Assembly: GCA_050309735.1 (NCBI GenBank)
Contig: JBNRMS010000035.1
Span: forward strand, 872-64,871
From: Eubacteriales bacterium
GTDB lineage: Bacteria > Bacillota > Clostridia > Oscillospirales > CAG-272
Direction of reading: 5' to 3'
DNA: 64,000 bases
Shown here: piece by piece, positions 12,986 to 39,908 of the stretch
How positions within the stretch are numbered: position 1 is the first letter of the stretch
Layout: every line of letters begins with the position of its first letter
Made by a program: the position numbers and the translations under genes
Notes under the pieces: model-generated
Database searches by the model: none
Told to the model about the DNA's origin: nothing
Seen by the model: only the letters and a program-made list of their open reading frames with translations

Positions 12986-13193
12986 ATTAAAAAACCTCCA
13001 GTATTTATGAGGAGAAAAGACAATCTCCTCTAATATTTTATGCACTCTCCGAAAATTTGACATTGATCGTTGTTTGTTTTTATTGCATAAATGAAAAAAT
13101 TACCCCTCCTATACACCTTCTCTCATAATCGGGCAGCAATGGGCTCGGAAACAAATTGTTTCCAGAATCTTTTCAATATTTTTCTAAATGCTA

Positions 13194-13222: not shown

Positions 13223-13291
13223 TACACAAGGAATAATAACCTACTGTTAAAATAGGAATATGAACCTGTATCTTGTAAGGAGGTGTTTTCT

Positions 13292-16039: not shown

Positions 16040-17168
16040 TAATTTCGACTCCTTTCATTTCGGGTGTGTTTTTTGCTCTGGTTCGGAAAATCAGGCGATA
16101 GTTAAGGAAAAACTCGCTTCCGATTATAAAAAAGAGGATTATTCCCGATATGATATCGGATGCATAGTCATTCATTATGCTGTAGGTCGAGGCGATTTGA
16201 TGCGCCCCCTTCTCAAGGAAAACGAGCAAAAACGAGGTAAGCACCATATAGAATGCATTAAACTTTGAGAGCCACGCGACAATAATTGCGTCAAACCCGC
16301 GGCCTCCGCCGGTTGTCGTTGATATTGTTTGCGAGCCGCCTCCAACCAGCAGAAATCCGGCAATTCCGCATATGGCGCCCGAGATTGCCATGGTTCGTAG
16401 TATCACTTTTGAAACGTTTATACCGGCATATCTTGCCGTCTTCTCAGATTCCCCGACCACGCTTATCTCATACCCGTGCTTTGTGTATCTAAGATATACA
16501 AATATAATAACAGTGAGAGCAGCAATGACTATCAAATTAATTCCGCCCCGGTCGCCGAACACCACCGGGAACCAACCGGCCTTAGTGTCCATATTTATAA
16601 CTCCAAGGCTTGATCGCTGCCCCCTCCAAACATTAGTGTAGTATGCCACAAGTTGTATGGCGATATAGTTCATCATGAGTGTGAAAAGCGTTTCATTGGT
16701 TGACAGTTTGGCCTTGAATATCGCCGGTATAAGACCCCAGACAGCTCCCGCTGCCGCCGCGCCTAGCGCCATCACAGAAAAAAGCAGCCAGGGCTCAAGC
16801 GCGGAAAGTTTTAGCATACAGAAAGCCGCCCAGAGCGCGCCGACAAGCAGTTGCCCCTCGCCCCCGATATTCCAAAAGCGCATTTTGAAGGCCGGGGCCA
16901 GCGCCAGCGCGACTACAAGTAATTTTGCCGTTTCCTGAACTGCCCATTTTAAGCGCATAAGCTTCACTCCGCCAAATGTTCCCGCAAACATCGCGCGGTA
17001 AACGCCTATGGGGTCAAGCCCTGTTACAAAATAAATAAAGAGCGCGTCGATTATAAGCGCTGCGAGCACGGCGGCGGCGCGTATAGCTATTCCCTGCCAC
17101 ACCTTTATCGAATCACGCTTTATAATCCGCACAAAGGGCTCTTTTACAGTTGTTTTAGCCGAGTTCAT
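16032..17168 (-). CDS. ABC transporter permease (BMP/nucleoside type, NupP/YufP-like)
   Basis: Polytopic membrane protein; 8-nt overlap with the downstream permease and 4-nt overlap with the upstream ATPase. Confidence 0.85.
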   Translation of the reverse strand: MNSAKTTVKEPFVRIIKRDSIKVWQGIAIRAAAVLAALIIDALFIYFVTGLDPIGVYRAMFAGTFGGVKLMRLKWAVQETAKLLVVALALAPAFKMRFWNIGGEGQLLVGALWAAFCMLKLSALEPWLLFSVMALGAAAAGAVWGLIPAIFKAKLSTNETLFTLMMNYIAIQLVAYYTNVWRGQRSSLGVINMDTKAGWFPVVFGDRGGINLIVIAALTVIIFVYLRYTKHGYEISVVGESEKTARYAGINVSKVILRTMAISGAICGIAGFLLVGGGSQTISTTTGGGRGFDAIIVAWLSKFNAFYMVLTSFLLVFLEKGAHQIASTYSIMNDYASDIISGIILFFIIGSEFFLNYRLIFRTRAKNTPEMKGVEIND

Positions 17169-18745
17169 TGGTCTGCTCCCTCCCCGCCGTCTTTATTTGC
17201 ATTTTCATTTTTGTTGCCGTCGGCAAGGTTGGTCATCAACATTCCAACCTCCTCTTTGGTGGTTTTTCGAGCGTCGACTATCCCGTTAAGCCTTCCGCCG
17301 CATAGCACCAGCACGCGGTCGGAAAGGGCGAGCAGAACATCAAGGTCCTCGCCGACATATATGACAGAGACCCCCTTGGTTTTCTGCTCGTTGAGCAGCC
17401 GATAAATGGTATATGATGTATTGATGTCGAGCCCGCGTACCGCGTATGCTGTCATAAGCACGCTCGGTGCCGAGGCAATCTCGCGCCCGACCAGGACCTT
17501 CTGCACATTTCCCCCTGACAGGCGCCGCACCGGAGTCTTAACGTCGGGTGTAACAACCTCAAGTTCCTCTGCAATCTTTCCGGCAAGCTTCTTTGGTTCT
17601 TTCCTCTCTGTGAAAAAGGACGAGCCCTCACCGTAATTTTTGAGCATCATATTGTCCGCCATTCCCATAGAACCGACAAGCCCCATGCCGAGCCTGTCCT
17701 CGGGCACAAAAGAGAGCGCAACGCCAAACTCACGAATCTGCCGCGGCGTCTTACCCACAAGTTGTTGATGCTTCCCTCCGCCGGGCGGATAATACTCAAC
17801 GCTGCTTCCCTCGACCGGTTTTGCAAGTCCCGCAATTGATTCGAGCAGTTCCTTCTGCCCGCAGCCCGAGATACCCGCGATGCCTAAAATCTCACCGCTG
17901 TAAGCCTCAAAAGACACATTGTCGAGCGCAAGAACGCCGTCTGCGTTATAACATGAGAGATTTTTAACCGCCAGTCTTCTCTCGCGTTTAACCGGTTCGG
18001 GACGCTCAATATTAAGCTCTACCTTCTGTCCGACCATCATTTCGGTGAGCGACAGTTCTGTTGCTCCCTTAGTATCTACAGAGCCGACATATTCGCCCTT
18101 TCGTAGAATGGCAACTCTATCGGAAACTGCGAGCACCTCATGCAGTTTATGCGTGATAATGACTATCGCCTTACCGTCAGACTTCATATTTCGGATAACT
18201 GCGAATAGCTTTTCCGTCTCCTGCGGGGTCAGAACGGCGGTCGGTTCGTCAAGTATGAGTATGTCCGCGCCCCGCCAGAGCACCTTGATTATCTCAAGCG
18301 TTTGTTTCTCCGAGACCGACATATTATAAACTTTTTTGTGCGGGTCAAGAACAAAGCCATATTTTTTACATATCGCCGAAACCTCGCGAGCCACGTTCTT
18401 CATGTCAAACCTGCCGCCGCGCTGCCCGAGGATAACATTCTCGGCTGCGGTGAAAACATCCACCAGCTTGAAATGCTGGTGAATCATGCCGATTTTATTG
18501 TCGTATGCATCCTTGGGCGAGCGTATCGACACTTCCTCGCCGTTTACAAGTATCTGCCCCTCGTCGGGATAATATATGCCCGACAGCATATTCATAAGTG
18601 TAGTTTTCCCGCTGCCATTCTCACCGAGCAGCGAGAGAATTTCACCGTGCCGTATCTCAAGGCTCACATTTTTGTTTGCGACCACTTTGCCAAAGGACTT
18701 TGAAATATTCCTCAGTTCGACGGCGCTGCTTTTTTTATTGTTCAC
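17165..18745 (-). CDS. ABC transporter ATP-binding protein with two fused cassettes (NupO/YufO-like)
   Basis: GENGSGKT Walker A, ILILDEPT Walker B, second cassette with LSGGNVQK. GTG start 8 nt after GGAGGAAA. Confidence 0.9.
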   Translation of the reverse strand: MNNKKSSAVELRNISKSFGKVVANKNVSLEIRHGEILSLLGENGSGKTTLMNMLSGIYYPDEGQILVNGEEVSIRSPKDAYDNKIGMIHQHFKLVDVFTAAENVILGQRGGRFDMKNVAREVSAICKKYGFVLDPHKKVYNMSVSEKQTLEIIKVLWRGADILILDEPTAVLTPQETEKLFAVIRNMKSDGKAIVIITHKLHEVLAVSDRVAILRKGEYVGSVDTKGATELSLTEMMVGQKVELNIERPEPVKRERRLAVKNLSCYNADGVLALDNVSFEAYSGEILGIAGISGCGQKELLESIAGLAKPVEGSSVEYYPPGGGKHQQLVGKTPRQIREFGVALSFVPEDRLGMGLVGSMGMADNMMLKNYGEGSSFFTERKEPKKLAGKIAEELEVVTPDVKTPVRRLSGGNVQKVLVGREIASAPSVLMTAYAVRGLDINTSYTIYRLLNEQKTKGVSVIYVGEDLDVLLALSDRVLVLCGGRLNGIVDARKTTKEEVGMLMTNLADGNKNENANKDGGEGADQ

Positions 18746-18835
18746 CGGTCAGATTTCCTCCGAATCAAATCAAATAAAAACAACTGTAAAGGGAAGCTTG
18801 GTCAGCCTCCCTTTACAGCGTGTGAATAACTAATC

Positions 18836-20077
18836 TCAGCTTACGGACGGCACGTTAATACCGTCTATAATAATATCAAAGTAAGGAGCGCTGCGGAGCG
18901 TCGATTCGGCGAAATAATATTTATCGCCGCTATTGACTATTGTTTCCTTGCCGTCCATACCCCATGAACCGGTATAGCTGGTCAGGTGAGCGCCGTCCTT
19001 TGTGAATTTCGAGCAGTCAAAGATATGCAGGGTTCCTGCCTTGATGGAGGCAATCGCCGCGTCAACGGCTTCCTGTGTACCGGGGGCAACCGCTGCGGGA
19101 TTGAGCTTTGTTATAGCAACCGCGTCTTCGGAATAACCCTTGGCCCAGTCTGTGACTATATCCTCGCCTCTCATCACTGATCCGATAGCATATTCATAAT
19201 AAACCTTCCACTCGTTTGTCGCCGAGGTCAGAGCCGCGTCGGGAGCGGTGCCGATCATATCGACATTATAGCCCACCGAATATGCAATTTTCCCGTCTTT
19301 GAAAGCTTTCTGAACCGCGGCAGGAGCGCCGGTCGAGTCAGCGTGCTGGCCGATGATAACCGCGCCGTTTGCCATCATGGCCTCAGCGGCGGCACCCTCC
19401 TTCTCAATATCAAACCATGACGAGGTGTAGTTTACTTCCATCACGACATTTTCATAAATAGATTTTATGCCAAGATAGAAAGCTGTGAAGCCCGATACAA
19501 CCTCAGCGTATGAGAAAGCGCCGACATAACCGACCTTAACATTGCCGTCTGCATCAAAGCTGTTAGGCTGTTTTTCTTTTGTGAGTGTACCCGATTCGAC
19601 AAGCTCTTTAATCTTCATTCCCGCAACGATACCCGAGATATATCTCGACTCGTAAACGCAGGTGAAGGCATTTTTCAGATTTGAGAGACCGCTTTTGGCG
19701 GCTTTATCGCCTGTCATGGCAATGAAAGTGATATCAGGGAACTGGCGTGCAACCTGCTCCATATAGTCCTGATGACCGAACGAGTTGGAAATTATCAGCC
19801 CGCAGCCCTGTCCGGCGAGATCCTGAGCTGCCTGCAGGCAGTCTTCAGTGTCGTCGCGAACACTGTATTTCCAAAGAATTTGGCTGCTATTGAGATTTAG
19901 CGCTTCGGCGGCCGCGGTGATGCCGTCGATATGAGCTTTTGAATAGCCTTCTGTGGCGTCTCCGACTAAAATTACGCCGACTTTGAAATCGTCGTCGGTT
20001 TTTCCGCAGGACACAAGAGTTGCGGCAGAGATTACAAGAACAAGCGCAAGGATAGCCGCTAAGAGCTTCTTAGACAT
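18836..20077 (-). CDS. BMP-family (PnrA/Med-like) substrate-binding lipoprotein
   Basis: Lipobox LVSCGK; Bmp-family pattern; first gene of the operon. Confidence 0.85.
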   Translation of the reverse strand: MSKKLLAAILALVLVISAATLVSCGKTDDDFKVGVILVGDATEGYSKAHIDGITAAAEALNLNSSQILWKYSVRDDTEDCLQAAQDLAGQGCGLIISNSFGHQDYMEQVARQFPDITFIAMTGDKAAKSGLSNLKNAFTCVYESRYISGIVAGMKIKELVESGTLTKEKQPNSFDADGNVKVGYVGAFSYAEVVSGFTAFYLGIKSIYENVVMEVNYTSSWFDIEKEGAAAEAMMANGAVIIGQHADSTGAPAAVQKAFKDGKIAYSVGYNVDMIGTAPDAALTSATNEWKVYYEYAIGSVMRGEDIVTDWAKGYSEDAVAITKLNPAAVAPGTQEAVDAAIASIKAGTLHIFDCSKFTKDGAHLTSYTGSWGMDGKETIVNSGDKYYFAESTLRSAPYFDIIIDGINVPSVS

Positions 20078-20133: not shown

Positions 20134-20150
20134 AATATCCTAAAAAAACA

Positions 20151-20220
20151 GCTTATAGTCGGGCAAATGTAGGCTGCCCGGTAGAAACTTCCCGACCTTT
20201 ATCTCGGGGGATATACAAGC
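20151..20220 (-). promoter_or_regulatory. purine riboswitch aptamer, guanine class
   Basis: Minus strand reads GCTTGTATATCCCCCGAGATAAAGGTCGGGAAGTTTCTACCGGGCAGCCTACATTTGCCCGACTATAAGC. It matches the xpt G-box almost position for position (UAUA J1-2, AAGUUUCUACC J2-3, CCGACUAU with C at the specificity position). P1, P2 and P3 all pair. Confidence 0.9.
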
Positions 20221-20260
20221 GGTAAATATTCAATTATCATCAACATATTGGGACAAGTTA

Positions 20261-20418: not shown

Positions 20419-23400
20419 TTAAATCTCAATCTCGCCCTCGAACACCTTCACCGTGCCGCCGGTTAGGATTATGCCTTTATCCGAGGAGTTGACTATAAGG
20501 TCGCCGCCGGGAACCTTTACTGTGATATCCTCGTTTTCACGGCAATAGCCATTTTTAATGGCGGCGGCCACAGCTGCACAGGCACCCGTGCCGCAGGCGG
20601 GGGTTTCGCCGTTGCCACGCTCCCAAACACGCATTTTCAGCATATTGCTGTTCACCACTGTAACAAATTCAGTGTTTACGCGTTCTGGGAAGATTTTATG
20701 GTGTTCAAACAGGGGGCCAATTGAGTTGAGATCGAGATTATCAAGCCGGTCGCGGAAAATGACGCAGTGCGGGTTTCCGATGGCAAGACAGGTGACCCTG
20801 TATTCCCTGCCCCCCACCTCAAGCGGCATATTTACAACTTCATCCGATTTGACCAGCGCCGGAATTTCGGCAGGCGCGAAGAGAGCCGAGCCTACATTGA
20901 CGCTGACATAATTTACCTTGCCGTCTGTTATATATAAGGTTAATTCTTTTACACCACTGTCTGTCTCAACAGTGATATTCTCTCGGTCGACATAACCGTT
21001 GTCAAATATATATTTCCCAATATTCCGTATAGAGTTTCCGGCAAGCTTTCCGCGGCTGCCATCCCGGTTGTAAACCCGCATTTTAATGTCGGCGATGTCA
21101 GATTTTTCAATAAGGGCAATTCCGTCGCCGCCGATGCCAAGCTGCCTGTCGCAAAGCGTCAAGCAGAGCGATTCGGGGCTCTCAATTTTGCCGTCGAAGT
21201 TTTCGATACATATATAGTCGTCGCCGGTCGCCTGCATTTTGGTGAATCTTATTGTTTCCCGGGTCTTTTTCATGTTGTTTATGTCAACAAGTCCGGTATT
21301 CTGCTGCGTGTATCGACTGGCTATGATATCTGCAACGGCATTTGCCGTGTCAAGCGAGGTCATACAGGGGATTGAATGAAGAACGGCCTGGCGATGCAGG
21401 ATGGTATAATCGTTGAGCGTCGAATCCATCAGCGCGCCGGTATAGACGATATAGTTGATTTTTCCGTCCTCAAGCAGTTTAAATACCCGCTTATCCTTAA
21501 TGCTGACAATAATTTGAACCTCTATTCCAAGCTTTGAGACAGACATAGCTGTCTCGCGCGTGGCGTAGATTGTGAAGTGCATATCGTCAAATTTTTTGGC
21601 GAGCGAAACTATCTCCTGCTGATCCTGCGAGGCGGCGCTGAGCAGCACCCCAAGCTCGCGGTGCGAAGCAAATGACTTGAGCAGCATACCCGCCGAGGTC
21701 ATCCCTTTAAAAAGAGCCTCGCGCAGATTTCTGCCAACCCCCAGCACCTCGCCGGTCGATTTCATCTCGGGGCCGAGCGAGGAGTCGGCGTCGGTCAACT
21801 TCTCGAAGGAGAAAACCGGCACTTTGACAGCGTAGTAAGGCGGAGTTTTGTAAAGTCCGGTTCCGTATCCGAGGTCGCGCAGCTTTGCGCCGGTCATAAC
21901 CCGGGCGGCGATATCGACCATAGGGATTCCGGCAGCTTTGCTGATATACGGAACTGTCCTTGATGCTCGCGGGTTGACCTCGATAACATAAAGCTCGTTG
22001 TGATATATGAGATATTGGATATTTACAAGCCCTTTTGTTCCAAGCGATTTTGCGAGATATTCGGAGCTTTCGACAACGGTTTTCATCATCTTGTCGTTGA
22101 TGCTAAAGGGGGGATAGACGGCTATAGAGTCGCCGCTATGCACCCCGGCGCGCTCGATATGCTGCATAACTCCGGGGATAAGCACGTCCTCGCCGTCTGA
22201 TATGACATCAACCTCAATCTCCGAGCCCATCATATATTTGTCGACGAGCACCGGATTCTCGATTTTCTCGGCGAGTATTCGCTTCATGTAGGTTTTTACT
22301 TCATCCTTGTTGTAGACAATTTTCATATTCTGCCCGCCGATAACATAGGACGGGCGGAGCAGCACCGGGAAGCCGAGTTTTTCGGCCGCAGCGATTGCGT
22401 CTTCAAGATTATTAACACCCATTCCGTGCGGGCGCTTGATTCCGAATTTTTCAAGGAGTGCGTCAAACTTTTCGCGATCCTCGGCAAGGTCTATTCCTTC
22501 GGCCGAAGTGCCAAGAATTTCAATGCCTTTTTTGTGGAGATATGAGGTGAGCTTTATGGCGGTTTGCCCGCCGAAGGCAACGACCACGCCAACCGGTTTC
22601 TCAACCTTAATTATGTTCATGACATCCTCTGGGGTGAGAGGCTCAAAATAAAGGCGGTCGGCGGTGTCGTAGTCGGTTGAAACAGTTTCGGGATTGTTGT
22701 TGATAATCACAACATCATATCCGAGGCTTTTGAGCGTCCATGCGCAGTGAACAGACGAATAGTCAAACTCGATCCCCTGCCCTATTCTTATTGGCCCCGA
22801 GCCGAGCACTATTATAACCGGACGTCCGCTTCGTTTTATTTGGCGCGCCTCGCACTCCTGGTCGTAGGTCGAGTAGAAGTAGGGGGTTACAGCGTCAAAT
22901 TCTGCGGCGCAGGTGTCGACCATTTTATATACGCAGCGCGAGCTCGGCAGCTTTTTCACGCCCGAGATATGGCGAAGCGCCCGGTCGGTGTATCCGTATT
23001 TTTTTCCCTTGAGATATAGCTCCTCATTGAAATTCCTTGATATTTCGGCTTCATAATCAGCAAGGTTTTTAAACTTTTTTAAAAACCAGCGGTCAATCCG
23101 AGTAAACTCAAATATCTCGTCTATCGACATTCCACTCTTTATTGCCTCAAATATCGAGAAGATGCGCCTGTCATCGGGAGTTTTTAATCGTTCGGTGATA
23201 TCCTTTTCGGATATCGGTGCGGTGTTTAGTGTATCGAGCGAGAGCTCGGCTCCGCGAATCGCTTTCATAATTGCCATCTCAAATGAGGGGGCGATAGACA
23301 TCACTTCGCCTGTCGCCTTCATCTGTGTTCCGAGCTTGCGAGAGGCACCGACAAACTTATCAAAAGGCCATTTGGGGAATTTAACTACGATATAATCTAA

Positions 23401-24447
23401 CGCCGGCTCAAAGCAGGCGCAGGTCTTTCCGGTTATCTCGTTCTCAATCTCGTCAAGCGTGTAGCCAAGTGCGATTTTGGTGGTGATTTTTGCAATCGGA
23501 TAGCCGGTCGCTTTTGAGGCGAGCGCCGAGGAGCGTGAAACGCGCGGGTTGACCTCAATCACAGAATACTCAAAACTGTCGGGATTGAGCGCAAACTGAC
23601 AATTGCATCCGCCTACAATGTCAAGCGCCGAGATGATATTGAGCGACGCTATTCGGAGCATCTGATATTCTTTATTTGACAGAGTGACAGCCGGAGCGAC
23701 TACTATACTGTCGCCTGTGTGTATTCCAACCGGGTCTACATTCTCCATGCTGCACACCGCGATAGCGTTTCCGGCGCTGTCGCGCATTGTTTCAAATTCG
23801 ATTTCCTTCCATCCGTAGATATACTTTTCAATAAGAATCTGTCTTATCGGAGAGGCATCAAGTCCGGCCTCGGCCGCCGCCACCATCTCCTCAGGCGAAT
23901 AAGCGACGCCGCCCCCCGAGCCTCCGAGCGTGAAGGCCGGGCGGATTATGACGGGATAACCTATGCGCTCGGCGATATCAATAGCATGGTCAACATCATT
24001 CGCGATCTCCGACGGCACTGTCGGCTCGCCGATTGAATCCATAGTTTCTTTAAAAAGGCGGCGATCCTCGGCTTTGTCGATAGCATCTACATTTGTTCCG
24101 ATAAGTCTGACACCGTATTTTTCAAGAACGCCCTGTTTGCCAAGCTGCATTGACAGCGTAAGCCCGGTCTGCCCGCCAAGGCCGGCAAGCAGGCTGTCGG
24201 GGCGCTCTTTTTCTATTATTCGCGTGAGCGTTTCCACGGTGAGAGGTTCAAGGTATATTTCGTCGGCCAGCGCGTTGTCGGTCATGATAGTTGCCGGATT
24301 TGAGTTGACAAGCACCACATTAACCCCGGCAGCTTTAAGCACGCGACAGGCCTGCGCTCCGGCATAGTCAAATTCGGCGGCCTGACCGATGATTATCGGC
24401 CCTGAGCCTATCACAAGCACCTTTTTAATACTTTTATCAAGCGGCAT
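20419..24447 (-). CDS. carB: carbamoyl-phosphate synthase large subunit fused in frame to a DapF-fold (diaminopimelate-epimerase-like) C-terminal module
   Basis: Single uninterrupted 1342-codon ORF. Residues 1 to ~1065 are a full CarB (two ATP-grasp halves with GGQTGLTL / GGQTAIKL, plus the MGS-like domain). Residues ~1067-1342 are DapF-like (FTKMQATGDDY, GNPHCVIF, ERGNGETPACGTGACA). ATGA overlap with the carA stop. Confidence 0.85.
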   Translation of the reverse strand: MPLDKSIKKVLVIGSGPIIIGQAAEFDYAGAQACRVLKAAGVNVVLVNSNPATIMTDNALADEIYLEPLTVETLTRIIEKERPDSLLAGLGGQTGLTLSMQLGKQGVLEKYGVRLIGTNVDAIDKAEDRRLFKETMDSIGEPTVPSEIANDVDHAIDIAERIGYPVIIRPAFTLGGSGGGVAYSPEEMVAAAEAGLDASPIRQILIEKYIYGWKEIEFETMRDSAGNAIAVCSMENVDPVGIHTGDSIVVAPAVTLSNKEYQMLRIASLNIISALDIVGGCNCQFALNPDSFEYSVIEVNPRVSRSSALASKATGYPIAKITTKIALGYTLDEIENEITGKTCACFEPALDYIVVKFPKWPFDKFVGASRKLGTQMKATGEVMSIAPSFEMAIMKAIRGAELSLDTLNTAPISEKDITERLKTPDDRRIFSIFEAIKSGMSIDEIFEFTRIDRWFLKKFKNLADYEAEISRNFNEELYLKGKKYGYTDRALRHISGVKKLPSSRCVYKMVDTCAAEFDAVTPYFYSTYDQECEARQIKRSGRPVIIVLGSGPIRIGQGIEFDYSSVHCAWTLKSLGYDVVIINNNPETVSTDYDTADRLYFEPLTPEDVMNIIKVEKPVGVVVAFGGQTAIKLTSYLHKKGIEILGTSAEGIDLAEDREKFDALLEKFGIKRPHGMGVNNLEDAIAAAEKLGFPVLLRPSYVIGGQNMKIVYNKDEVKTYMKRILAEKIENPVLVDKYMMGSEIEVDVISDGEDVLIPGVMQHIERAGVHSGDSIAVYPPFSINDKMMKTVVESSEYLAKSLGTKGLVNIQYLIYHNELYVIEVNPRASRTVPYISKAAGIPMVDIAARVMTGAKLRDLGYGTGLYKTPPYYAVKVPVFSFEKLTDADSSLGPEMKSTGEVLGVGRNLREALFKGMTSAGMLLKSFASHRELGVLLSAASQDQQEIVSLAKKFDDMHFTIYATRETAMSVSKLGIEVQIIVSIKDKRVFKLLEDGKINYIVYTGALMDSTLNDYTILHRQAVLHSIPCMTSLDTANAVADIIASRYTQQNTGLVDINNMKKTRETIRFTKMQATGDDYICIENFDGKIESPESLCLTLCDRQLGIGGDGIALIEKSDIADIKMRVYNRDGSRGKLAGNSIRNIGKYIFDNGYVDRENITVETDSGVKELTLYITDGKVNYVSVNVGSALFAPAEIPALVKSDEVVNMPLEVGGREYRVTCLAIGNPHCVIFRDRLDNLDLNSIGPLFEHHKIFPERVNTEFVTVVNSNMLKMRVWERGNGETPACGTGACAAVAAAIKNGYCRENEDITVKVPGGDLIVNSSDKGIILTGGTVKVFEGEIEI

Positions 24448-25526
24448 CAGTTTATACCTCCCTTTTTGTGAAACTGGTCAACCATTGAAATAAACCTCTC
24501 AAAGAGGAAGGATGTGTCAAGCGGACCGGCGCAAGCCTCGGGGTGAAACTGCACCGAGAAGGCCGAAAGCCCGGGATATTCAATCCCCTCGCAGGTGCCG
24601 TCGTTTGCATTGGTGAATATCTCCCTGCCGATTTCGCCAAGACTTGAGGTGACGACGGCATATCCGTGATTCTGGCTTGTAATGTATGTGCGGCTGCCGA
24701 AAATCTCCTTAACCGGCTGATTGGCGCCGCGATGCCCGTATTTTAGCTTTTCCGTCCGGCCGCCCGCGGCGAGTGCAAGCAATTGATGCCCAAGGCAAAT
24801 TCCGAATATCGGCAACCTTCCGAGCAGTTTTTTTAGCTGCTCGATTTCATATATGTTCTCTGCCGGGTCGCCGGGGCCGTTTGAGAGCACAATTCCGTCG
24901 GGTAAGGTGGCTAGAATTTCTTCGGCCGATGCTGTAGACGGAAGCGAGCGCACACTGCAGCCCCGCTCTGTTAGCGAGCGAATTATGTTTGTTTTCGCGC
25001 CATAATCTATCAAAGTGAGCCTGAATTTTTCATTTTGTGATACAAAAATTTCCTCTTTGCCGCAGGTGACGCTACTCACAGCCCCCTCAATTTTAAAATT
25101 TCTGATAAAAGAGAGGTCGTCGGGAACACTGTCGCAGATAGCGGCGTTCATAACACCGCGCTCCCGGATGATTTTGGTCACCTGCCGGGTATCAATTCCC
25201 GAAAGCCCGACAACATTATTTCGCTCCAGAAAGGTGTTAAGGTCATACTGACTTCTGAAATTGGATGGATAGTCGCAGGCCTCGCGCACCACATAGCCCC
25301 GCACGCAGCACCTACCCTCGAAATCCTCCTCGATGATTCCATAATTGCCAATCAAAGGGAAGGTCTGAAGCACGATCTGGCCGTAATAGCTCGGATCTGT
25401 CAGCGTTTCGATGTAGCCGCACATGCCGGTTGTGAAGACCAGCTCACCGACATTTTCTATGTCGGCTCCGAACTTCTCGCCGGGGAAGACGCTACCGTCC
25501 TCCAGTACAAGATAAGCTTTTTTCAT
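24447..25526 (-). CDS. carA: carbamoyl-phosphate synthase small (glutaminase) subunit
   Basis: GICLGHQLL (Cys) and QFHPE motifs. Start moved to ATG 25526 (MKKAYLVLEDG) after GGAGAGGAAA; ORF track start is 25634. Confidence 0.92.
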   Translation of the reverse strand: MKKAYLVLEDGSVFPGEKFGADIENVGELVFTTGMCGYIETLTDPSYYGQIVLQTFPLIGNYGIIEEDFEGRCCVRGYVVREACDYPSNFRSQYDLNTFLERNNVVGLSGIDTRQVTKIIRERGVMNAAICDSVPDDLSFIRNFKIEGAVSSVTCGKEEIFVSQNEKFRLTLIDYGAKTNIIRSLTERGCSVRSLPSTASAEEILATLPDGIVLSNGPGDPAENIYEIEQLKKLLGRLPIFGICLGHQLLALAAGGRTEKLKYGHRGANQPVKEIFGSRTYITSQNHGYAVVTSSLGEIGREIFTNANDGTCEGIEYPGLSAFSVQFHPEACAGPLDTSFLFERFISMVDQFHKKGGIN

Positions 25527-25604
25527 TGTTTTATATTTTCCTCTCCCCCGGCCGCCCGAATCTACCAGTCGGTCGGGTAAAAATAAACACAAATATATAC
25601 AATT

Positions 25605-25639
25605 GAAAGATGAGGCGTCATAAGACAAACTCATCTTTC
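25605..25639 (-). terminator. hairpin between argF and carA (possible partial terminator or attenuator)
   Basis: GAAAGATGAG-N15-CTCATCTTTC 10-bp stem just after the argF stop; a mixed A/T tract follows. Confidence 0.4.
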
Positions 25640-25649
25640 AGAAATTTAT

Positions 25650-26636
25650 TCACGACAGTGTGGCGGCCATAACGGCCTTTATTGTGTGCATACGGTTCTC
25701 AGCCTGATCGAAAACAACCGAGTTTGAGCTCTCGAATACCTCGTCGGTAACCTCAAGCCCGTCAAGTTTGTATTTTTCGCCGACAGTGCGGCCGATACCG
25801 GTTTTCATATCGTGGAAGGCCGGCAGACAGTGCATAAAAATTGCACGATTTCCGGCAATACCCATAAGTTTTTTGTTGACCTGATAGGGTAGCAGTGCTG
25901 AGATACGCTCATCCCAAACCTCTTCGGGCTCGCCCATTGATACCCAAACGTCGGTATATATAACATCAGCCCCTCTTGCAGCCTCGGCCGGGTCGGATAA
26001 AAATCTTAGTTTCGCGCCCGACGCACTCGCCTCAGACTTGCATACAGCTATTAAATCGTCGGACGGAAAATATCCGGTGGGAGCGCACGCTGTAAAATTA
26101 AGCCCCATTTTAGCGCAGCCGACCATGAGCGAGTTGCCCATGTTATACCTTGCGTCACCAATATAAACGAAATTTATACCCCGAAGACGCCCGAATTTCT
26201 CGCGGATGGTCATAAGGTCTGCCAGCACCTGTGTGGGGTGAAATTCGTTTGTCAGACCGTTCCAAATCGGAACGCCCGCATATCTTGCCAGCTCCTCTAC
26301 TATCTCCTGCCCAAATCCGCGGTATTCAATCCCGTCATACATCCGGCCGAGAACCCGCGCCGTGTCGGAGATGCTCTCTTTCTTGCCAATTTGAGAGGAG
26401 GCGGGATCAAGATAGGTAACTCCCATCCCCAGGTCATGCGCGGCAACCTCAAAGGCGCAGCGTGTACGCGTGCTTGTTTTTTCGAATATAAGCGCTATAA
26501 TTTTGCCCTCGCAGAGTCGGTGGGCGATTCCCGCCTTCTTCTTTGCCTTAAGCTCGTCGGCAAGGTCGACAAGGCGGCTGATCTCCTCGGAGGTAAAATC
26601 AAGCAATTTAAGAAAGCTTCTTCCTTTTAGATTCAT
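25650..26636 (-). CDS. argF: ornithine carbamoyltransferase
   Basis: STRTR, HPTQ and HCLPA motifs; start ATG 26636 after GGAGGTAGG. Confidence 0.93.
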
Positions 26637-26650
26637 TCCTACCTCCATAA

Positions 26651-27814
26651 TTATTCGGCGCAAGCCGCCCTGATAATCCCGACTGCTCTCTTTAGCACCC
26701 CATCGGGTATATTAAGCGCAGGCAGAAGCCTGAGCTTGTGTTTTGCCTTGATTAGGATAACACCCGCCTCGCGGCATTTGGCGATAACCTCGGATGCATT
26801 CTTCACAGTTTCAATGCCAAGCATCAGCCCCATCCCGGTGACGCTTACAATTCCCGGAGAACCCGAGAGTTCCCTTATTATATAATCCGACTTTTTTGTC
26901 ACTTTGTCAAGTAGTTTTTCATCAATTCTTGATAAAATATTTAAAGCGCCGGCCGAAACAACCGGATTTCCCCCGAAAGTTGAGCCGTGAGAGCCGGGTG
27001 TGAGTACATTTTTCGTCTTTTTGCCGAGAAGAGTTGCGCCTATCGGCAACCCGCCACCAAGCCCCTTTGCGGTGGTGACTATATCGGGAAGAATATCATA
27101 GTGCATATAGGCAAAATACTTTCCTGTCCGTCCGTTTCCGGTCTGAACTTCATCGGCGACAAGCAGGACATCATGCTGATCGGCAAGCCTTTTTAGCTCT
27201 TGCACAAAATCATATTCAAGAGGCAAAACTCCACCCTCGCCCTGAATCAGCTCAAACATCACCGCCGCAACCCTACCGGTCTTTATCATTTTTTCGATCG
27301 ATTCTATGTCACCCGGCTCGGCATAGTAAAAACCGTCTGTGAGCGGAAGAAAATCCTTGTGAAAGTCACTCTGCCCGGTTGCGGCCAGTGTTGTTATTGT
27401 CCGGCCGTGAAAGCTGTTCTTGAGGGTGATAATTTTGTATCGGTCTTTGCCGTATTTGTCGGCTGCGTATTTGCGCGCTGTTTTAATGGCGCATTCGTTT
27501 GCCTCGGCGCCCGAGTTTGAGAAGAAAACCTTACTCAGCAGGCTGACCTCACACAAGCGCTCGGCAAGGAGTACACATGGGTCACTATAAAATAAATTCG
27601 ACGTATGTTGACATATATTTAATTGTTTTGTGACGGCCTCGATCCATTCATCATCACACTCGCCAAAGGTGTTAACCGCGATACCGCTGCCAAGGTCTAT
27701 ATATTCCTTGCCGTTCTCATCGTAAACAAGCGATCCCTTCCCGCGTACGATATTGAGCGGAAAGCGGACGTATGTAGCGGCGATAAACTCGGCGTCCTTC
27801 TGGTATATATTCAT
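26651..27814 (-). CDS. argD: acetylornithine aminotransferase
   Basis: Class-III aminotransferase motifs ([31 protein letters not shown]); start ATG 27814. Confidence 0.9.
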
Positions 27815-27828
27815 AATGTATATCTCCC

Positions 27829-28698
27829 TCAATCCTCTGTTTCAGCTATCATTGTCCCCGCTCCCTCGTCGGTCAGCATTTCAATTAAGAGCGAGTGGGG
27901 TATTCGGCCGTCAATAATAGTCACCTTGGAAACTCCCCTCATTATCGCTTCGATACAACACTCAATCTTGGGTATCATTCCGCCCGAAACACTGCCATCG
28001 GCAATCATTCTCCGAGCGTCTTCAAGATTGACGAAACGAATCAGTGAGGAAGGGTCGTTGACGTCGCGCAGCACCCCGGCGGTGTCGGTCAGAGTCATAA
28101 GGCGCTCGGCCTTCATGGCTCCCGCAATATATGCAGCGGCTGTGTCGGCATTGATGTTGTAGACATTACCCTCCGCGTCGCAGCCAACCGTTGAGACAAC
28201 CGGGATATATCCGTTACGGAGCAGGTCGGTGATAGGCTCGACATTCACATTTGTAATCTCGCCGACAAAACCGTGAATTTCGTTCTTTTTTCGCGCCTCA
28301 ATCAGCCTGCCGTCAATTCCGCAGATGCCGATAGCGCGGCCGCCCTTAGTCTGTATTAAATTGACAAGGTTTTTGTTAACCTTTCCGGCAAGCACCATCT
28401 GCACTATCTCGGCAGACTCTTTATCTGTCACCCGCAGCCCGTCAATAAAAACCGATTCCAGGCCGAATTTTTCGAGCACATCTGTAATTTCGGGGCCGCC
28501 GCCGTGTACCAGAACAACACTGACGCCGATTAGCTGAAGCAGTATTATATCATCCATAACCTGCCGCTTTAACTCCTCGTTTATCATCGCGTTTCCGCCG
28601 TACTTGACAACGACGATTTTATTATAATATTTTTGTATATACGGCAGCGCCTGTGTCAGTACCTCGGCGCGCTGAGCGTTCACAATATCTAATGACAT
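27829..28698 (-). CDS. argB: acetylglutamate kinase
   Basis: VVKYGGNAM, VHGGGP and NINADTAA motifs. Confidence 0.93.
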   Translation of the reverse strand: MSLDIVNAQRAEVLTQALPYIQKYYNKIVVVKYGGNAMINEELKRQVMDDIILLQLIGVSVVLVHGGGPEITDVLEKFGLESVFIDGLRVTDKESAEIVQMVLAGKVNKNLVNLIQTKGGRAIGICGIDGRLIEARKKNEIHGFVGEITNVNVEPITDLLRNGYIPVVSTVGCDAEGNVYNINADTAAAYIAGAMKAERLMTLTDTAGVLRDVNDPSSLIRFVNLEDARRMIADGSVSGGMIPKIECCIEAIMRGVSKVTIIDGRIPHSLLIEMLTDEGAGTMIAETED

Positions 28699-28781
28699 AT
28701 AATCTTCCTCATTTTATAACAATATTCATCTGTCAGTCGGGACTTGTGCCGCTGCCATAGTCTTGAGCCGAAAGGTGCAAA

Positions 28782-29993
28782 CTATGTTCTGTAATCTCCG
28801 TTTATTTTAACATAGTCGTACGTGAGGTCGCAGCCCCATGCTCTCGCTCTGCAGCGCCCGCTTTTAAGTTCGATTTTAATGATAACCTCTTTCTCAAGCA
28901 AAATTTCCTTGGCCGTTTGCTCAGAGAAAGCTATCACCATGCCGTCCTTACACACCATAATCTCACCCGCCCCCGAGGCAAACGAAACATCGATTCGACC
29001 GACGTCAATTTCAGCCCCGCTATATCCGATGGCGCAGAGTACGCGTCCGCAGTTTGCGTCTGCCCCGAACATCATCGATTTAACCAGTGATGAACTTATG
29101 ACACTTTTTGCAACAGTCTTTGCGGTTTTCTCATCGGGTGCGCCCTCAACCTTGCATTCGAGCAGCTTTGTTGCTCCCTCGCCGTCTGCCGCTATCATGC
29201 GGCAGAGGTAGAGGGTGACGGTGTTGAGCGCCTCCACGAATGCCGAAAAGTCCTCCCCCTCGGAAGTTATTTCGCGATTTTCCGCCATGCCGTTTGCCAT
29301 CACGCTCACCATGTCGTTAGTTGAAGTGTCGCCGTCGACGCTTATCATGTTAAAGGTGTTTTTCACGTCTTCGGAGAGTGCCTTTTGCAGCATTTTTTGT
29401 GATATTGCGGCGTCTGTTGTGATAAAGGCAAGCATTGTGGCCATATTCGGATTTATCATACCCGAACCTTTGGCAATGCCGCCGATTTTACACTCAACCC
29501 CGCCAATCATAAAGCTGACAGCGATCTCTTTTTGTGAAATGTCGGTGGTCATTATCCCCTCGGCCGCCTCGCGGCTGTTTTGACCGAGCGATTTTACAAG
29601 TTCGGGGATTCCTTTTTTTATCGGCGTAATGTCAAGTTTTTGCCCGATTACCCCGGTCGACGCTATGACTACATCCTTCGGGGAGATTCCAAGTTCGCGC
29701 CCTATAAGCTCGCAGGTCAGTTCGGCGATTTCAACGCCGTTTGGATTACAGGTGTTGGCATTGCCGCTGTTGCAGATTATGGCCTGAGCGTATCCGTCGG
29801 CGATATTATTTTTTGTGACCAAAAGCGGCGCGCCCTTAACAAGATTTGTGGTATAAACCGCCGCTGTTATCGCTCTTCTTTCACTGAAAATCAGGGAAAG
29901 ATCGCGTTTGCTGCGGTTTTTACGTACGCCGCAGTGAATTCCGCTCGCGGTGAATCCTTTGGCGGCACAGACGCCGCCTTCTATAATTTTCAT
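28782..29993 (-). CDS. argJ: bifunctional ornithine acetyltransferase / N-acetylglutamate synthase
   Basis: Self-cleavage site PNMATMLAFITTDA. Start ATG 29993, 13 nt after GAAAGG; ORF track start is 30005. Confidence 0.92.
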   Translation of the reverse strand: MKIIEGGVCAAKGFTASGIHCGVRKNRSKRDLSLIFSERRAITAAVYTTNLVKGAPLLVTKNNIADGYAQAIICNSGNANTCNPNGVEIAELTCELIGRELGISPKDVVIASTGVIGQKLDITPIKKGIPELVKSLGQNSREAAEGIMTTDISQKEIAVSFMIGGVECKIGGIAKGSGMINPNMATMLAFITTDAAISQKMLQKALSEDVKNTFNMISVDGDTSTNDMVSVMANGMAENREITSEGEDFSAFVEALNTVTLYLCRMIAADGEGATKLLECKVEGAPDEKTAKTVAKSVISSSLVKSMMFGADANCGRVLCAIGYSGAEIDVGRIDVSFASGAGEIMVCKDGMVIAFSEQTAKEILLEKEVIIKIELKSGRCRARAWGCDLTYDYVKINGDYRT

Positions 29994-30159
29994 TCTAATA
30001 ACCATGCCTTTCTGTTAGCCGAGGTTTGTGCCGGCTCGGAGCCTGTCAATTTGTTGCCATTCATAAGAGGAAGGAGGCACAAAATTCACCGTTTGAGCGA
30101 AGCTTGCTTCACTCAAGCGGTTGCAATCTGTTCCAAAAAGATAATAGCGCAAACAAAAG

Positions 30160-31089
30160 TTAAAGCGTCAATCCTTTTTTGGCCGGAATGCCGAGGGCTA
30201 TATTCATACACTCAACAGCCGCGCCCGACGCCCCCTTGCCGAGGTTGTCGAACTGCGCGTACAGGGTTATGCGCTCGTCGTTGCCCGCGACTGTTATCTT
30301 CATTTGGTCAAGTCCTGTGAGTGCGCCGCTCGATATGAAGCCCCTGCTGTCAATAGAATCACAATATCGAACAAGACCATTCCTGTATTTGTTTTTGTAT
30401 ATATTAGTGATGTCTCCTGCATTCGCTCCGCTCAGCATCCGGGCAAAAAGCGGGATTGTTATGAGCATTCCGCTGAAATAATCGGCAACGACAGGAGTGA
30501 AGTGCGGCTCGTATACAAGCCGACTTATTGCTCGCATTTCCTTTAAGTGCTTGTGCCGCTGCTCGGTTGCGTAAATTCGAGGTGAGGAATATTCATCTGT
30601 TCTGTCGCCATTCTCATATTCGGCGATCATCTTCTTGCCGCCGCCCGAATACCCGGTCAGAGAGAAGCAGGTTAACTCTGTTTTTGCCGGCAGTATCCCA
30701 GCCTCGGTCAGCGGATATATGAGGGCGATAAAGCCGCTCGCGTGGCACCCCGGCACTGTTATACGTTTTGAATTTTTTATCGCGTTGTGGTGGGCCTCGG
30801 ACAACTCCGGAAAGCCATATGACCAGCCCGGGGCTGTTCGGTGTGCTGTTGAGGTGTCGATAATTATTGTGTCCGGGTTCTCAACCATTCGAACCGCCTC
30901 GATTGCCGCCTCGTCGGGCAGGCAGAGGAAGGCAACGTCGGCCATATCAAGACATTTTTTTATCTCATCGGGATCTTTTCTAAGCTCGGGAGAAATTGAA
31001 ATCAGCTTTATATCATCTCTTGCCTCGAGCCGCTTATAAATTTTAAGGCCCGTGGTGCCGGCCTCGCCGTTAATAAAAACGCTTTTCAT
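30160..31089 (-). CDS. argC: N-acetyl-gamma-glutamyl-phosphate reductase (short type)
   Basis: NGEAGTTG N-terminal NAD fold, catalytic VPGCHASG, ~310-aa form. Confidence 0.88.
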   Translation of the reverse strand: MKSVFINGEAGTTGLKIYKRLEARDDIKLISISPELRKDPDEIKKCLDMADVAFLCLPDEAAIEAVRMVENPDTIIIDTSTAHRTAPGWSYGFPELSEAHHNAIKNSKRITVPGCHASGFIALIYPLTEAGILPAKTELTCFSLTGYSGGGKKMIAEYENGDRTDEYSSPRIYATEQRHKHLKEMRAISRLVYEPHFTPVVADYFSGMLITIPLFARMLSGANAGDITNIYKNKYRNGLVRYCDSIDSRGFISSGALTGLDQMKITVAGNDERITLYAQFDNLGKGASGAAVECMNIALGIPAKKGLTL

Positions 31090-31139
31090 ATAAATATAAA
31101 TCTCCTAAACAAGTGGCGACAATCTCCTCTCGCCGCGCC

Positions 31140-32528
31140 TTATCTGTCTGCCGCGAGATACTCCTCGAACCACTTTATTTGAGCGGCTACCGAGGCAGGA
31201 CAAGTTCCGCCGGCCGAAATGCGCTTAGCAACGCAATTCGCAAGGTCAATTTCGCGATAGAGATCGTCCTCAAAGAGTGGGTCATGTGATTTGTATTCTT
31301 CAAGAGTCAGTTCTTCAAGGACACGGCCGCATTTAATCGAATATGCCACAATTTGCCCAACCGTCTTGTATGCCGCCCTGAAGGGCACGCCTTTTTTTGT
31401 AAGGTAGTCGGCAAGGTCTGTCGCATTGATAAATCCGCGCTGTGCCGCCGCGTACATATTCTCCCCGTTGACCTTCATTGTCTTGAGCATCGGCGCGAAA
31501 ACCTCAAGGCAGATTTTAACCGTATCAACAGCGTCGAATATCGCTTCCTTGTCCTCCTGCATATCCTTGTTATATGCCAGAGGAAGCCCTTTTAGAGTGG
31601 TAAGAAGCGAGATAAGCCCCCCGTAAACTCGGCCCGTCTTGCCGCGTACGAGTTCGGCCATGTCGGGATTCTTTTTTTGAGGCATTATGCTCGAACCCGT
31701 GGTATAGGAATCGTCAAGCTCTATAAACCGAAACTCCCACGACGACCAGAGCACGATTTCCTCAGAGAAGCGCGAGAGGTGCATCATCAGGATTGAGAAG
31801 CAGGAGAGAAGCTCAAGGCAGAAATCTCGGTCGGACACTCCGTCAATACTGTTTCGGACTATCCCGTCAAATCCGAGAGCAGACGCCGTCATCTCTCTAT
31901 CTGTATCATAGGTTGTTCCCGCAAGCGCGCATGAGCCGAGCGGAGACAAATTCATGCGTTTCACAGCGTCACAAATACGTCCAATATCCCGCTCAAACAT
32001 ACTCGCATATGCTAAAATGTGATGTGAAAATGCAACAGGCTGCGCGCGCTGCAAGTGTGTGTAGCCGGGCATGATTACATTCTTATTGGCATTTGCCTGC
32101 TCAACAATCGCCCCTATCATCTCCCTAATCAGGTCGATTATCTCATCGGCTTCGTCGCGCAGATAGAGCCTTGTGTCGAGCGCCACCTGGTCGTTTCTGC
32201 TTCGCGCCGTGTGCAGCTTTTTGCCGGCCTCGCCCACCCTTGCGGTTAGCTCGGATTCGACAAACATATGTATATCCTCGGCACCTGGGTCGAATTCAAG
32301 CTCTCCCGCTTCAATGTCGGCAAGAATTCCCTCAAGGCCTTTTATTATTATATCTGCCTCGCCCTCGGTGATTATTTTACAAGCGGCCAGCATTTCAGCG
32401 TGCGCTATCGAGCCTTTAATGTCCTGACGGTACATTTTTGAATCAAAGCTTATCGAGGAATTGAAGTGGTCTGCTTTTTTATCGAGCGCACCCGAGGCGC
32501 GCCCCGCCCACATCTTATTGCCGCTCAT
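31140..32528 (-). CDS. argH: argininosuccinate lyase
   Basis: Fumarate-lyase signature [12 protein letters not shown]; 4-nt overlap with argG. Confidence 0.95.
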
Positions 32529-33751
32529 AAGCCGTTATTCGCTTTCATCTTAGCGTAAACCTTGATCGGCAGGCCGTAGAGATTAATAAATCCGGTAGCC
32601 TCACTCTGGTCGTAGACATTGTCCTCTTCGAAGGTGGCGATGTCGGCGTCGTAAAGCGAGTAGGGCGAGGATACGCCGGCATTAATAAGGTTGCCCTTAT
32701 AGAGCTTGAGAGTGACGTCTCCGGTTACATATTTCTGTGTGGTTTTCACAAAGGCGAGCAGTGCCTCGGTCAGCGGTGTAAACCAGAGCGCAGAGTAAAC
32801 CTGTTCGGCAAGGCGGAGAGCGACAAGCGATTTATAGTGCGAGGTGTCTCGGTCAAGGCATAGGCTCTCAAGAACCTTGTGCGCGTGATAGAGTATCGCT
32901 CCGCCCGGTGTTTCATAGACGCCGCGACATTTTATGCCGACCAGTCGGTTCTCGACAATGTCAAGGAGTCCTATCCCGTTCTCTCCGCCGAGTTTATTAA
33001 GTGTTTTGACAAGCTCAACCGAGTCCATCTTTTTGCCGTTGACCGCCGTCGGAATGCCTGATTCAAAATGCACCGTCACATATGTAGGCTCATCGGGCGC
33101 CATTTCGGGCGAAACGCCCATTTCAAGGAAGCCCTTTTTATTGTATAGAGGCTCGTTTTTCGGATCTTCAAGATCCATTCCCTCATGCGAAAGGTGCCAG
33201 ATATTCTTGTCCTTTGAGTAGTTGGTTTCGCGGCTGATTTTGAGAGGTATATTGTGCGCCTCGGCATATTCAATCTCTTCCTCGCGCGATTTTATGCTCC
33301 ATTCACGCCAGGGGGCTATGATATGCATATCGGGCGCGAAGGCCTTTATGGCCAGCTCAAAGCGCACCTGATCATTTCCTTTGCCGGTGCATCCGTGGCA
33401 GATGGCATCTGCTTGCTCGGCAAGCGCAATCTCGGCTATCCGCTTTGCTATTGGAGGACGTGCGGCAGCCGTTCCAAGCATATAATCCTCATAAAGGGCG
33501 CCTGCCTGAACCAGCGGAAAAATATATTCCTCGAGAAATTCCTTTGTAAGATCTTCTACATAGAGCTTCGATGCTCCTGTCTTGAGGGCTTTCTCCTCAA
33601 GTCCTTCGAGTTCGTCTGCCTGACCGACGTTACCCGAAACGGCGATAACCTCGCAGTTGTTGTAATTTTCTTTGAGCCACGGGATAATTATCGAGGTGTC
33701 AAGTCCCCCGGAATATGCAAGTACAACCTTTTTAATTTTACTTTTATCCAT
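32525..33751 (-). CDS. argG: argininosuccinate synthase
   Basis: [12 protein letters not shown]-PPase motif and [13 protein letters not shown]. Confidence 0.95.
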
Positions 33752-36434: not shown

Positions 36435-36615
36435 TATTATGACCATACCTTTCTGTTTTTAGAGGTTTGTGCCGGTACCGGATCCGCCGGTATTGCTGCC
36501 ATCTCCTACAGCTCCAAAGGCACAAATCTTGTTGTTTGAAAGAAAACTTGTTTTCTTACAAACTTCTCCCTTATGCCACCCCGGGGGGCGGCTATATATT
36601 TTTATTTTGGCACAA

Positions 36616-39527: not shown

Positions 39528-39598
39528 AAAAACCTCCATGCCGCCCGAGAAGCGGCTTATTTAATCGTGAAAAGCTACATTCGGTAACTTTTACGCTG

Positions 39599-39886: not shown

Positions 39887-39908
39887 CCGAAAAACCTCCT
39901 TATAAAAT

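Follow-up and report, generated by a model that had tools for sequence, protein, structure and literature searches.

Carbamoyl-phosphate synthase (CPSase) is a textbook allosteric enzyme, whilst diaminopimelate (DAP) epimerase, DapF, is a textbook two-thiol epimerase and an antibiotic target. Here we describe a gene, carB~dapF, in which the CPSase large subunit CarB continues in frame into a DapF-fold module that lacks the first of the two catalytic cysteines. The gene lies at 20419..24447 on the reverse (−) strand of the window, by which we mean the whole 64,000-nucleotide stretch analysed (positions 872 to 64,871 of contig JBNRMS010000035.1, Eubacteriales bacterium assembly GCA_050309735.1). 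Enzymes fused after the allosteric domain of a CPSase are known from the eukaryotic multi-enzyme proteins CAD and URA2, and loss of a single catalytic cysteine is known from the trans-3-hydroxy-L-proline dehydratases, which descend from proline racemases with two catalytic cysteines through a Cys to Thr exchange and whose substrate carries a beta-hydroxyl leaving group. For DapF itself, the C73A variant of the Haemophilus influenzae enzyme reportedly carries out no epimerisation and still abstracts a proton from one face of the substrate. In Escherichia coli the CPSase regulatory domain binds ornithine, inosine monophosphate (IMP) and uridine monophosphate (UMP) and holds the (alpha-beta)2 dimer together, and effectors alter its oligomerisation (PMC6245113). 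DapF catalysis uses a thiolate as base on one face of the alpha carbon and a thiol as acid on the other, and the enzyme closes over its ligand (PMC12039745). E. coli DapF is a tight dimer that requires Tyr268 for dimerisation, and its C73A/C217A double mutant is inactive (PMC6061791); it also moonlights, independently of catalysis, as a protein-binding activator of RppH (PMC6061791; PMC4227774).

The carB~dapF gene is a single ATG-to-TAA open reading frame (ORF) encoding 1342 aa, the last gene of an arg operon, and both the ORF listing and the translation gave zero internal stops, in line with a first-pass annotation made from the DNA alone, which had reported 1342 codons without a stop. Profile scores, alignment to E. 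coli CarB and conservation of the tail assign residues 1 to ~1061 (21265..24447, −) to CarB, with two pre-ATP-grasp/ATP-grasp units, an oligomerisation domain, an MGS-like allosteric domain and the C-terminal tail NTxLVDINxM(K/R); the Pfam domains occur in the order PF25596 (twice), PF02786 (twice; CPSase_L_D1/D2), PF02787 (CPSase_L_D3) and PF02142 (MGS). The NCBIfam CarB equivalog NF003671 scored 1440 bits against a cut-off of 599 (residues 1-1046, 1058-position model) and TIGR01369 scored 1412 bits against a cut-off of 1027. By these measures the CarB part is an ordinary large subunit of CPSase, and ATP-dependent carbamoyl-phosphate synthesis is its predicted activity. It shares with CarB of the E. 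coli type and with the arginine-specific CarB of Bacillota the domain order through MGS, the equivalog-level score, an overlapping upstream carA and a place in an arg operon, and differs from them in carrying ~280 extra C-terminal residues that form a DapF fold. Several positions that we take to form the UMP/IMP site of E. coli CarB appear substituted in the window protein.

The MGS-like allosteric domain and tail occupy residues ~931-1061 (21265..21657, −), as judged from PF02142 at 945-1030, the E. coli alignment and an AlphaFold2 model, and since window residues ~934-1043 correspond to residues 945-1055 of the 1073 in E. coli CarB, the native CarB end falls near residue 1061. A codon alignment of 10 species then delimits a spacer, T-R-E-T (residues 1062-1065; 21253..21264, −), the residues of which vary between species whilst its length, ~4-6 residues, stays the same, so that the short linker proposed earlier stands. 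The DapF-like module itself spans residues 1066-1342 (20422..21252, −) and was assigned its two-lobed DapF fold from TIGR00652, a phmmer search of the PDB and AlphaFold2/Foldseek: the DapF equivalog TIGR00652, which has a cut-off of 114.65, matched residues 1066-1340 at 255-260 bits and aligned over positions 1-268 of its 270, and phmmer matched 2otn at 216 bits. As in CAD and URA2, the added enzyme follows the CPSase regulatory domain; the partners in CAD belong to the same pathway (DHOase, ATCase) and are joined through long linkers, whereas carB~dapF takes its partner from a different pathway, in a catalytically altered form and with hardly any linker.

The junction reads ...LVDINNMKKTRETIRFTKMQATGDDY, as quoted in the first-pass annotation, and the out-of-frame TAA noted there is present, within GAC ATA AAC. 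The accompanying proposal that MKKTRETIRFTKM was once the N-terminus of a separate DapF gained no support: NTELVDINxMR is common to all of the fusions and aligns with the last ~18 residues of unfused CarB, so that the junction Met more likely belongs to the CarB tail, and ~6 variable residues separate this conserved tail from the DapF start F-x-K-[ML]-Q. We also considered, and rejected, an internal translation start at Met1059, as no Shine-Dalgarno-like sequence was seen by eye upstream of this Met, which lies in the conserved CarB tail and is replaced by Ile in one related locus (L033).

The fusion recurs in relatives: all 120 best hits to a 443-residue junction query carried both MGS and DAP_epimerase, at identities from 96% down to 52%. 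Species-representative genomes, when scanned, matched the entire junction at 20 loci, 15 of them complete ORFs of 1342-1392 aa and the remaining five cut by contig ends. Exact look-ups placed the full-length fusions in 90%-identity clusters of 542, 137, 72, 10 and 9 members, which come from NCBI, ENA, Logan and JGI assemblies and are nearly all of identical length. Across the 10 species of the codon alignment the junction contained no indel and kept its frame in spite of many synonymous and non-synonymous differences, and conserved residues flanked it on either side. The first-pass annotation had also raised the possibility that a single indel, in assembly or sequencing, merged separate carB and dapF genes, for which the out-of-frame TAA at the junction and an in-frame TAG in the linker of one metagenome contig (L037) might be cited; the same frame and junction length in 10 divergent species, the conserved residues to each side, the 15 complete fused ORFs in independent genomes and the hundreds of same-length copies in independent assemblies refute it, and we give it a negligible likelihood. 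Orthologues with a stop at the junction came down to that single 2.4-kb contig, where a TAG (L037:1350-1352) stands at the linker Tyr codon and splits carB from a 289-aa Cys-less DapF (P0122). The latter, at first taken for a standalone Cys-less DapF, is thus the fused gene with a single in-frame TAG, for which sequencing error, pseudogenisation and a naturally split variant are all conceivable.

On this evidence the CarB-DapF-fold fusion is real, conserved, selectively maintained and old. Of the earlier suggestion of a gene-fusion event or a new regulatory module, the fusion is borne out and the regulatory role is a live hypothesis, taken up below. Full-length copies are named in databases only as 'carbamoyl-phosphate synthase large subunit', and fragments at contig ends as 'diaminopimelate epimerase, partial'. 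Our profile scan found no dedicated NCBIfam model for the fusion, and the literature searched yielded no publication on a CarB-DapF fusion or on a natural DapF lacking Cys73, so that the architecture, which the first-pass annotation could not place either, is apparently undescribed.

Three of the fused or related loci depart from this pattern in ways of their own. In a 1392-aa representative of the 72-member cluster (L016:3160-7335) the CarB oligomerisation domain carries two insertions, after window residues 474 and 499, one of which is Cys-rich (…CTSDCKTCRCCCGES…) and suggests a metal- or redox-related insert. At L017:2485-6627 a frameshift in the last ~30 codons gives a 1381-aa product with an aberrant Arg/Cys-rich tail; the metagenome-assembled genome (MAG) is labelled Bacteroidaceae, yet the locus is clostridial, its CarB being 98% identical to that of L014, and the bin label is suspect. 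A supposed 729-aa DapF fusion (L027) was rejected, since a masked N-run had artificially joined dapF to an adjoining aminotransferase-like gene; L027:5268-7454 contains, by eye, a standalone two-Cys dapF, the N-run and then a gene of LL-DAP-aminotransferase type, an arrangement that would represent the canonical setting of dapF in a Clostridia MAG, unlike the arg operon in which the fusion lies.

The fold of the module is complete, as the first-pass annotation had it, whilst the active site is not: alignment to solved DapFs places Ala1136 (GCC; 21040..21042, −) at the first catalytic cysteine, Cys73 in H. influenzae and Cys75 in Anabaena, and the CGNGxRC motif of DapF reads KLAGNSIRN in the window protein. 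The comparison was extended with DapFs from an exhaustive representative search and the genome scan. Among 142 fused members of the clade this position was Ala in 126, Gly in 14, Ser in two and Cys in none, against Cys in 121/121 standalone DapFs and 11/11 Cys-type N-extended sequences; the genome loci split equally cleanly (Ala/Gly in 20/20 fused, Cys in 13/13 standalone). The second catalytic cysteine, Cys1285 (Cys217/224; motif ACGTGAC), was retained in 142/142 clade members and forms, with Gly1286 and Thr1287, the N-terminus of the carboxylate-binding helix (20587..20595, −, by alignment). With one of the two catalytic cysteines gone across the whole clade, the module should not be taken for a functioning enzyme of the lysine or peptidoglycan pathway, a point missed in the first-pass annotation.

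The roles of the DAP-contacting residues were taken from the Anabaena DapF structure (PMC12039745) and mapped to the window protein by alignment with solved DapFs. The distal-end contacts Asn66, Asn164, Asn197, Glu215 and Arg216 (Anabaena numbering) correspond to N1127, N1225, N1258, E1276 and R1277, and the proximal-carboxylate contacts Gly76, Asn77, Gly225 and Thr226 to G1137, N1138, G1286 and T1287. Together with C1285 these ten residues (N1127, G1137, N1138, N1225, N1258, E1276, R1277, C1285, G1286 and T1287) were 97-100% conserved in a clade with a mean identity of 61% and a minimum of 40%. Ligand contacts changed only at the proximal alpha-amine, where both of the side chains involved differ: Cys75 is replaced by Ala, Gly or Ser, and Asn13, in many members, by Asp. 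At the latter position (Asn11/Asn13), occupied in the window by Asp1076 (21220..21222, −, by alignment; role per PMC12039745), the Cys-less clade has Asp in 89/142 and Asn in 53/142 members, against Asn in 121/121 standalone DapFs. Residues 73 (Ala/Gly/Ser) and 11 (Asp/Asn) occur in all combinations, and no conserved substitute base for Cys73 was identified within the clade, where positions +3, +6 and Asn11 all vary. Near the pocket, Asn1279 (in ERGNGET), Glu1092 and Glu1114 are invariant and peculiar to the clade, and the counterpart of E. coli Tyr268, Phe1336 in the window protein, is aromatic (Phe or Tyr) in 141/142 members.

Pairwise-species dN/dS (the ratio of non-synonymous to synonymous substitution, Nei-Gojobori) was 0.04-0.18 for the DapF-like module, 0.01-0.11 for the MGS domain and 0.02-0.07 for the CarB core, the highest value for the module (L014/L017) being inflated by the frameshifted 3' end of L017. 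The module is thus not decaying and is under strong purifying selection. An AlphaFold2 model of residues 900-1342 had a mean pLDDT (predicted local distance difference test) of 87.7 and a pTM (predicted template modelling score) of 0.81, which exceeds what a DapF lobe making up 63% of the model could yield on its own and suggests packing between the domains. In Foldseek comparisons the modelled module matched closed, inhibitor-bound DapF 9mro with a template modelling score (TM) of 0.92 and a root-mean-square deviation of 1.8 Å, and 3ejx with a TM of ~0.9; 3-hydroxyproline dehydratases were also among the matches, as distant members of the same fold. Set beside characterised DapFs (EC 5.1.1.7; H. 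influenzae 1GQZ/2GKE, Anabaena 9MRO, Bacillus anthracis 2OTN), the module is alike in fold (TM 0.83-0.92, 36-39% identity), distal and proximal-carboxylate contacts, second cysteine and dimer-interface aromatic, and unlike in its first cysteine (Ala/Gly/Ser), its frequent Asp at Asn11, its attachment to CarB and its arginine rather than lysine/DAP context.

The relatives carrying the fusion form a large group of uncultured gut and rumen Clostridia, labelled mostly Oscillospiraceae or Ruminococcaceae and otherwise Faecousia or Anaerotruncus, the closest (L001) being 84-88% identical; the Cys-less fusion occurs, for instance, in MAGs of the WGS sets CAZMZJ01, CAJJPG01, DKDS01, DJET01, JAFOYI01, CABPZE01 and UQZY01. 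A rarer type of fusion retains both cysteines. Its complete representative, P0126 (1349 aa, on a 1.68-Mb contig of the Oscillospiraceae MAG GCA_050950425.1), is encoded as carA-carB~dapF outside any arg operon, and the fragments P0124, P0133 and P0237 are CarB-DapF fusions that likewise have both cysteines and Asn11. These proteins share architecture, junction length and tail motif with the Cys-less clade and are its sister group in the DapF tree, differing in that they keep CGN and Asn11 and, for P0126, in lying outside an arg operon; they are presumably true bifunctional enzymes. In a neighbour-joining tree of DapF modules, which is distance-based, carries no support values and is approximate, the Cys-less sequences formed one clade (46/46 in the subsample), with P0126 plus P0123, then P0124 plus a standalone Acutalibacteraceae DapF, then P0133 plus a Scatolibacter DapF as successive sisters. 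P0123, like P0126 and P0124, is a CarB fusion that keeps its cysteines. The DapF-like module descends from a genuine DapF, and as the sister fusions have both cysteines the fusion would have preceded the cysteine loss; the simplest scenario is that carB and dapF fused once, end to start, into a gene for a bifunctional enzyme, and that Cys73 was then lost once, in the arg-operon lineage. A divergent Cys-less group, P0163/P0164 (42% identity), was placed elsewhere in the tree, which may reflect a second Cys loss or a long-branch effect.

The searches also returned some unusual single sequences. P0214 (776 aa) joins an N-terminal two-Cys DapF to the middle and C-terminal domains of a Mur ligase, a fusion within the same (peptidoglycan) pathway. 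In P0148 (315 aa) the first ~100 CarB residues are joined to the CarB tail and the Cys-less module by an internal deletion of ~940 residues, and P0164 (332 aa) has an unrelated Cys-rich N-terminal segment before a truncated Cys-less module; both could be misassemblies or rearranged pseudogenes.

The genomic setting of the fused gene is that of arginine biosynthesis. It closes a nine-gene operon on the reverse strand (argG, argH, argC, argJ, argB, argD, argF, carA, carB~dapF), in which the genes from argG to argF, identified with Pfam, lie at 25650..33751 (−) and carA, for the CPSase small subunit, at 24447..25634 (−), its stop overlapping the carB start by 1 nt. The order (argD-)argF-carA-carB~dapF recurred in all related fused loci whose upstream sequence reached far enough. 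L033:2311-7320 differs from the other fused loci in having no intervening carA, so that argF lies directly against carB~dapF; carA must there be elsewhere or missing. No conserved downstream partner gene was found, the neighbours differing between species (Mrp/ParA-type NTPase, thymidylate synthase/DHFR, PEPCK, SecF). A tblastn search detected no second dapF in the 64-kb window, nor was one seen beside the fusion in the flanks of the other loci, and the window ORFs scanned with Pfam, which extend to 58.4 kb, included no DAP or lysine genes.

With the thiol/thiolate pair lost, the canonical two-base epimerisation of L,L- to meso-DAP would be impossible for the Cys-less module, and we infer that it cannot run this reaction. 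It fits the pattern of a putative pseudoenzyme, in which a catalytic residue is lost whilst fold and pocket remain under purifying selection. We tentatively favour, with a little less than even confidence, the view that the module is a ligand-binding and/or dimerising regulatory appendage of an arginine-pathway CPSase. Tethered by ~4 residues to the C-terminus of the CarB allosteric domain, it would enclose a ligand, either DAP or a diamino or ureido amino acid of nearly the same shape, or would simply dimerise, and either event would modulate the activity or the oligomeric state of the CPSase; where Asn has become Asp, the alpha-ammonium of the ligand would gain a carboxylate partner in place of the lost thiolate. 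The contact between DapF and RppH in E. coli provides a precedent for a DapF fold acting on another enzyme through protein-protein interaction, although that contact is non-covalent, its partner is unrelated and E. coli DapF is still a working epimerase. A more specific version, possible though in our view doubtful, would make the module a new allosteric CPSase sensor: an ex-epimerase receptor for meso- or L,L-DAP, or for a near-isosteric amino acid of the arginine pathway such as citrulline or ornithine, attached to the regulatory domain at the dimer axis, through which the status of cell-wall/lysine precursors, or flux in the arginine pathway, would act on arginine-specific carbamoyl-phosphate synthesis.

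Several observations weigh against a regulatory appendage. Cys1285 is 100% conserved, more than a pure binding domain obviously needs, and its retention hints at residual chemistry. The exchange of Asn11 for Asp occurs in 63% of the clade only and so is not an obligatory compensation. Packing between the MGS domain and the module is predicted from the pTM value alone. Should the genomes have neither a second canonical dapF nor a bypass through ddh or the PLP-type dapF2, the module may still be needed to supply meso-DAP. As cited in PMC6245113, finally, Mora 2002 indicates that in E. coli oligomerisation alone leaves CPSase regulation unchanged.

Two other readings would keep the module an enzyme. 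It might still be the DAP epimerase of the cell, making the protein a bifunctional CarB/DapF in which a water molecule in the Cys to Ala/Gly cavity, possibly activated by Asp1076, serves as the second acid/base. Strict conservation of all the DAP-binding residues and of Cys1285, a DapF equivalog score far over the cut-off, two-Cys sister fusions such as P0126 that imply plausible bifunctional beginnings, and the lack of another dapF both in the window and next to the fusion elsewhere are all consistent with this idea; yet the thiol/thiolate pair defines the DapF mechanism (PMC12039745), Cys is found in 121/121 standalone homologues, and the free combination of residues at positions 73 and 11 leaves no consistent replacement base. 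An essential cell-wall enzyme would moreover be odd as the last cistron of an arg operon, and the C73A variant of H. influenzae DapF is said not to epimerise. We therefore regard a surviving epimerase as unlikely. The module might instead be a different enzyme, neo-functionalised to use Cys1285 as a single base for elimination, dehydration or proton abstraction in one direction, with a DAP-like compound as substrate; the absolute conservation of this cysteine is the strongest point in its favour, and the systematic loss of the other agrees with it. The clade-specific invariants near the pocket (Asn1279, Glu1092, Glu1114) and the strong purifying selection would suit such an enzyme, as would the structural match to the 3-hydroxyproline dehydratases, which have likewise lost exactly one catalytic Cys and kept the other together with the pocket. 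The dehydratases, however, belong to a different subfamily and have Thr in place of the lost Cys, and for the module we see no substrate with a beta-leaving group in the arginine pathway or linked to carbamoyl phosphate; gene context in the window and the related loci suggested no candidate substrate. The pocket, besides, is the same as in DAP-specific enzymes, and a one-base reaction leaves the covalent tie to CarB through a fixed spacer of 4-6 residues unexplained, so that we hold this enzyme to be no likelier than a surviving epimerase.

The module could instead be an evolutionary relic of a chance read-through between neighbouring genes, its DapF activity dispensable and the domain kept as ballast since its removal would destabilise CarB. 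An end-to-start fusion nearly without a linker is what such an origin might leave behind, and the Ddh route, which makes DapF dispensable, is common in gut bacteria (643/2856 genomes; PMC9026213). Ballast nevertheless predicts a conserved core rather than a conserved pocket, and a dN/dS of 0.04-0.18 with ten near-100% conserved ligand-contacting residues, in a clade as diverse as this one, makes a relic improbable, more so than either enzymatic reading.

The unit that follows the operon is unrelated to it and starts with a sigma-70-like promoter at 20289-20261 (12/12 matches) and a purine riboswitch at 20136-20238, both on the reverse strand, which mark the unit boundary. The riboswitch (RF00167) scored 63.7 bits and is followed by a terminator-like hairpin at 20133-20109. 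The genes under its control (15056-20077, −) encode a Bmp/PnrA-like binding protein, an ABC ATPase and two permeases, and probably form a purine or nucleoside uptake system. Elsewhere in the window, a T-box leader (RF00230; 39937-40152, −; 95.9 bits) precedes gatC-gatA-gatB and a class II aminoacyl-tRNA synthetase of Asp/Asn/Lys type (35058-39973); it overlaps the 5' end of the called gatC ORF, the real start of which is probably further downstream. Two ORFs between clpX and the ABC transporter (12134-13063, −, 309 aa; 13283-14863, +, 526 aa) had no Pfam match at E<=1e-5.

The parent families CarB and DapF are thoroughly known, whilst the fused sequences have stood unremarked in public databases. 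Their names call for caution in annotation, since fragments labelled 'diaminopimelate epimerase' could wrongly fill the DapF step of lysine and peptidoglycan synthesis in these MAGs. If the regulatory reading is true, CPSase in abundant gut and rumen Clostridia would have acquired a new regulatory or assembly domain, and the fusion would offer a clean natural case of an enzyme turned sensor or pseudoenzyme, which could be compared with the intact two-Cys sister fusions.

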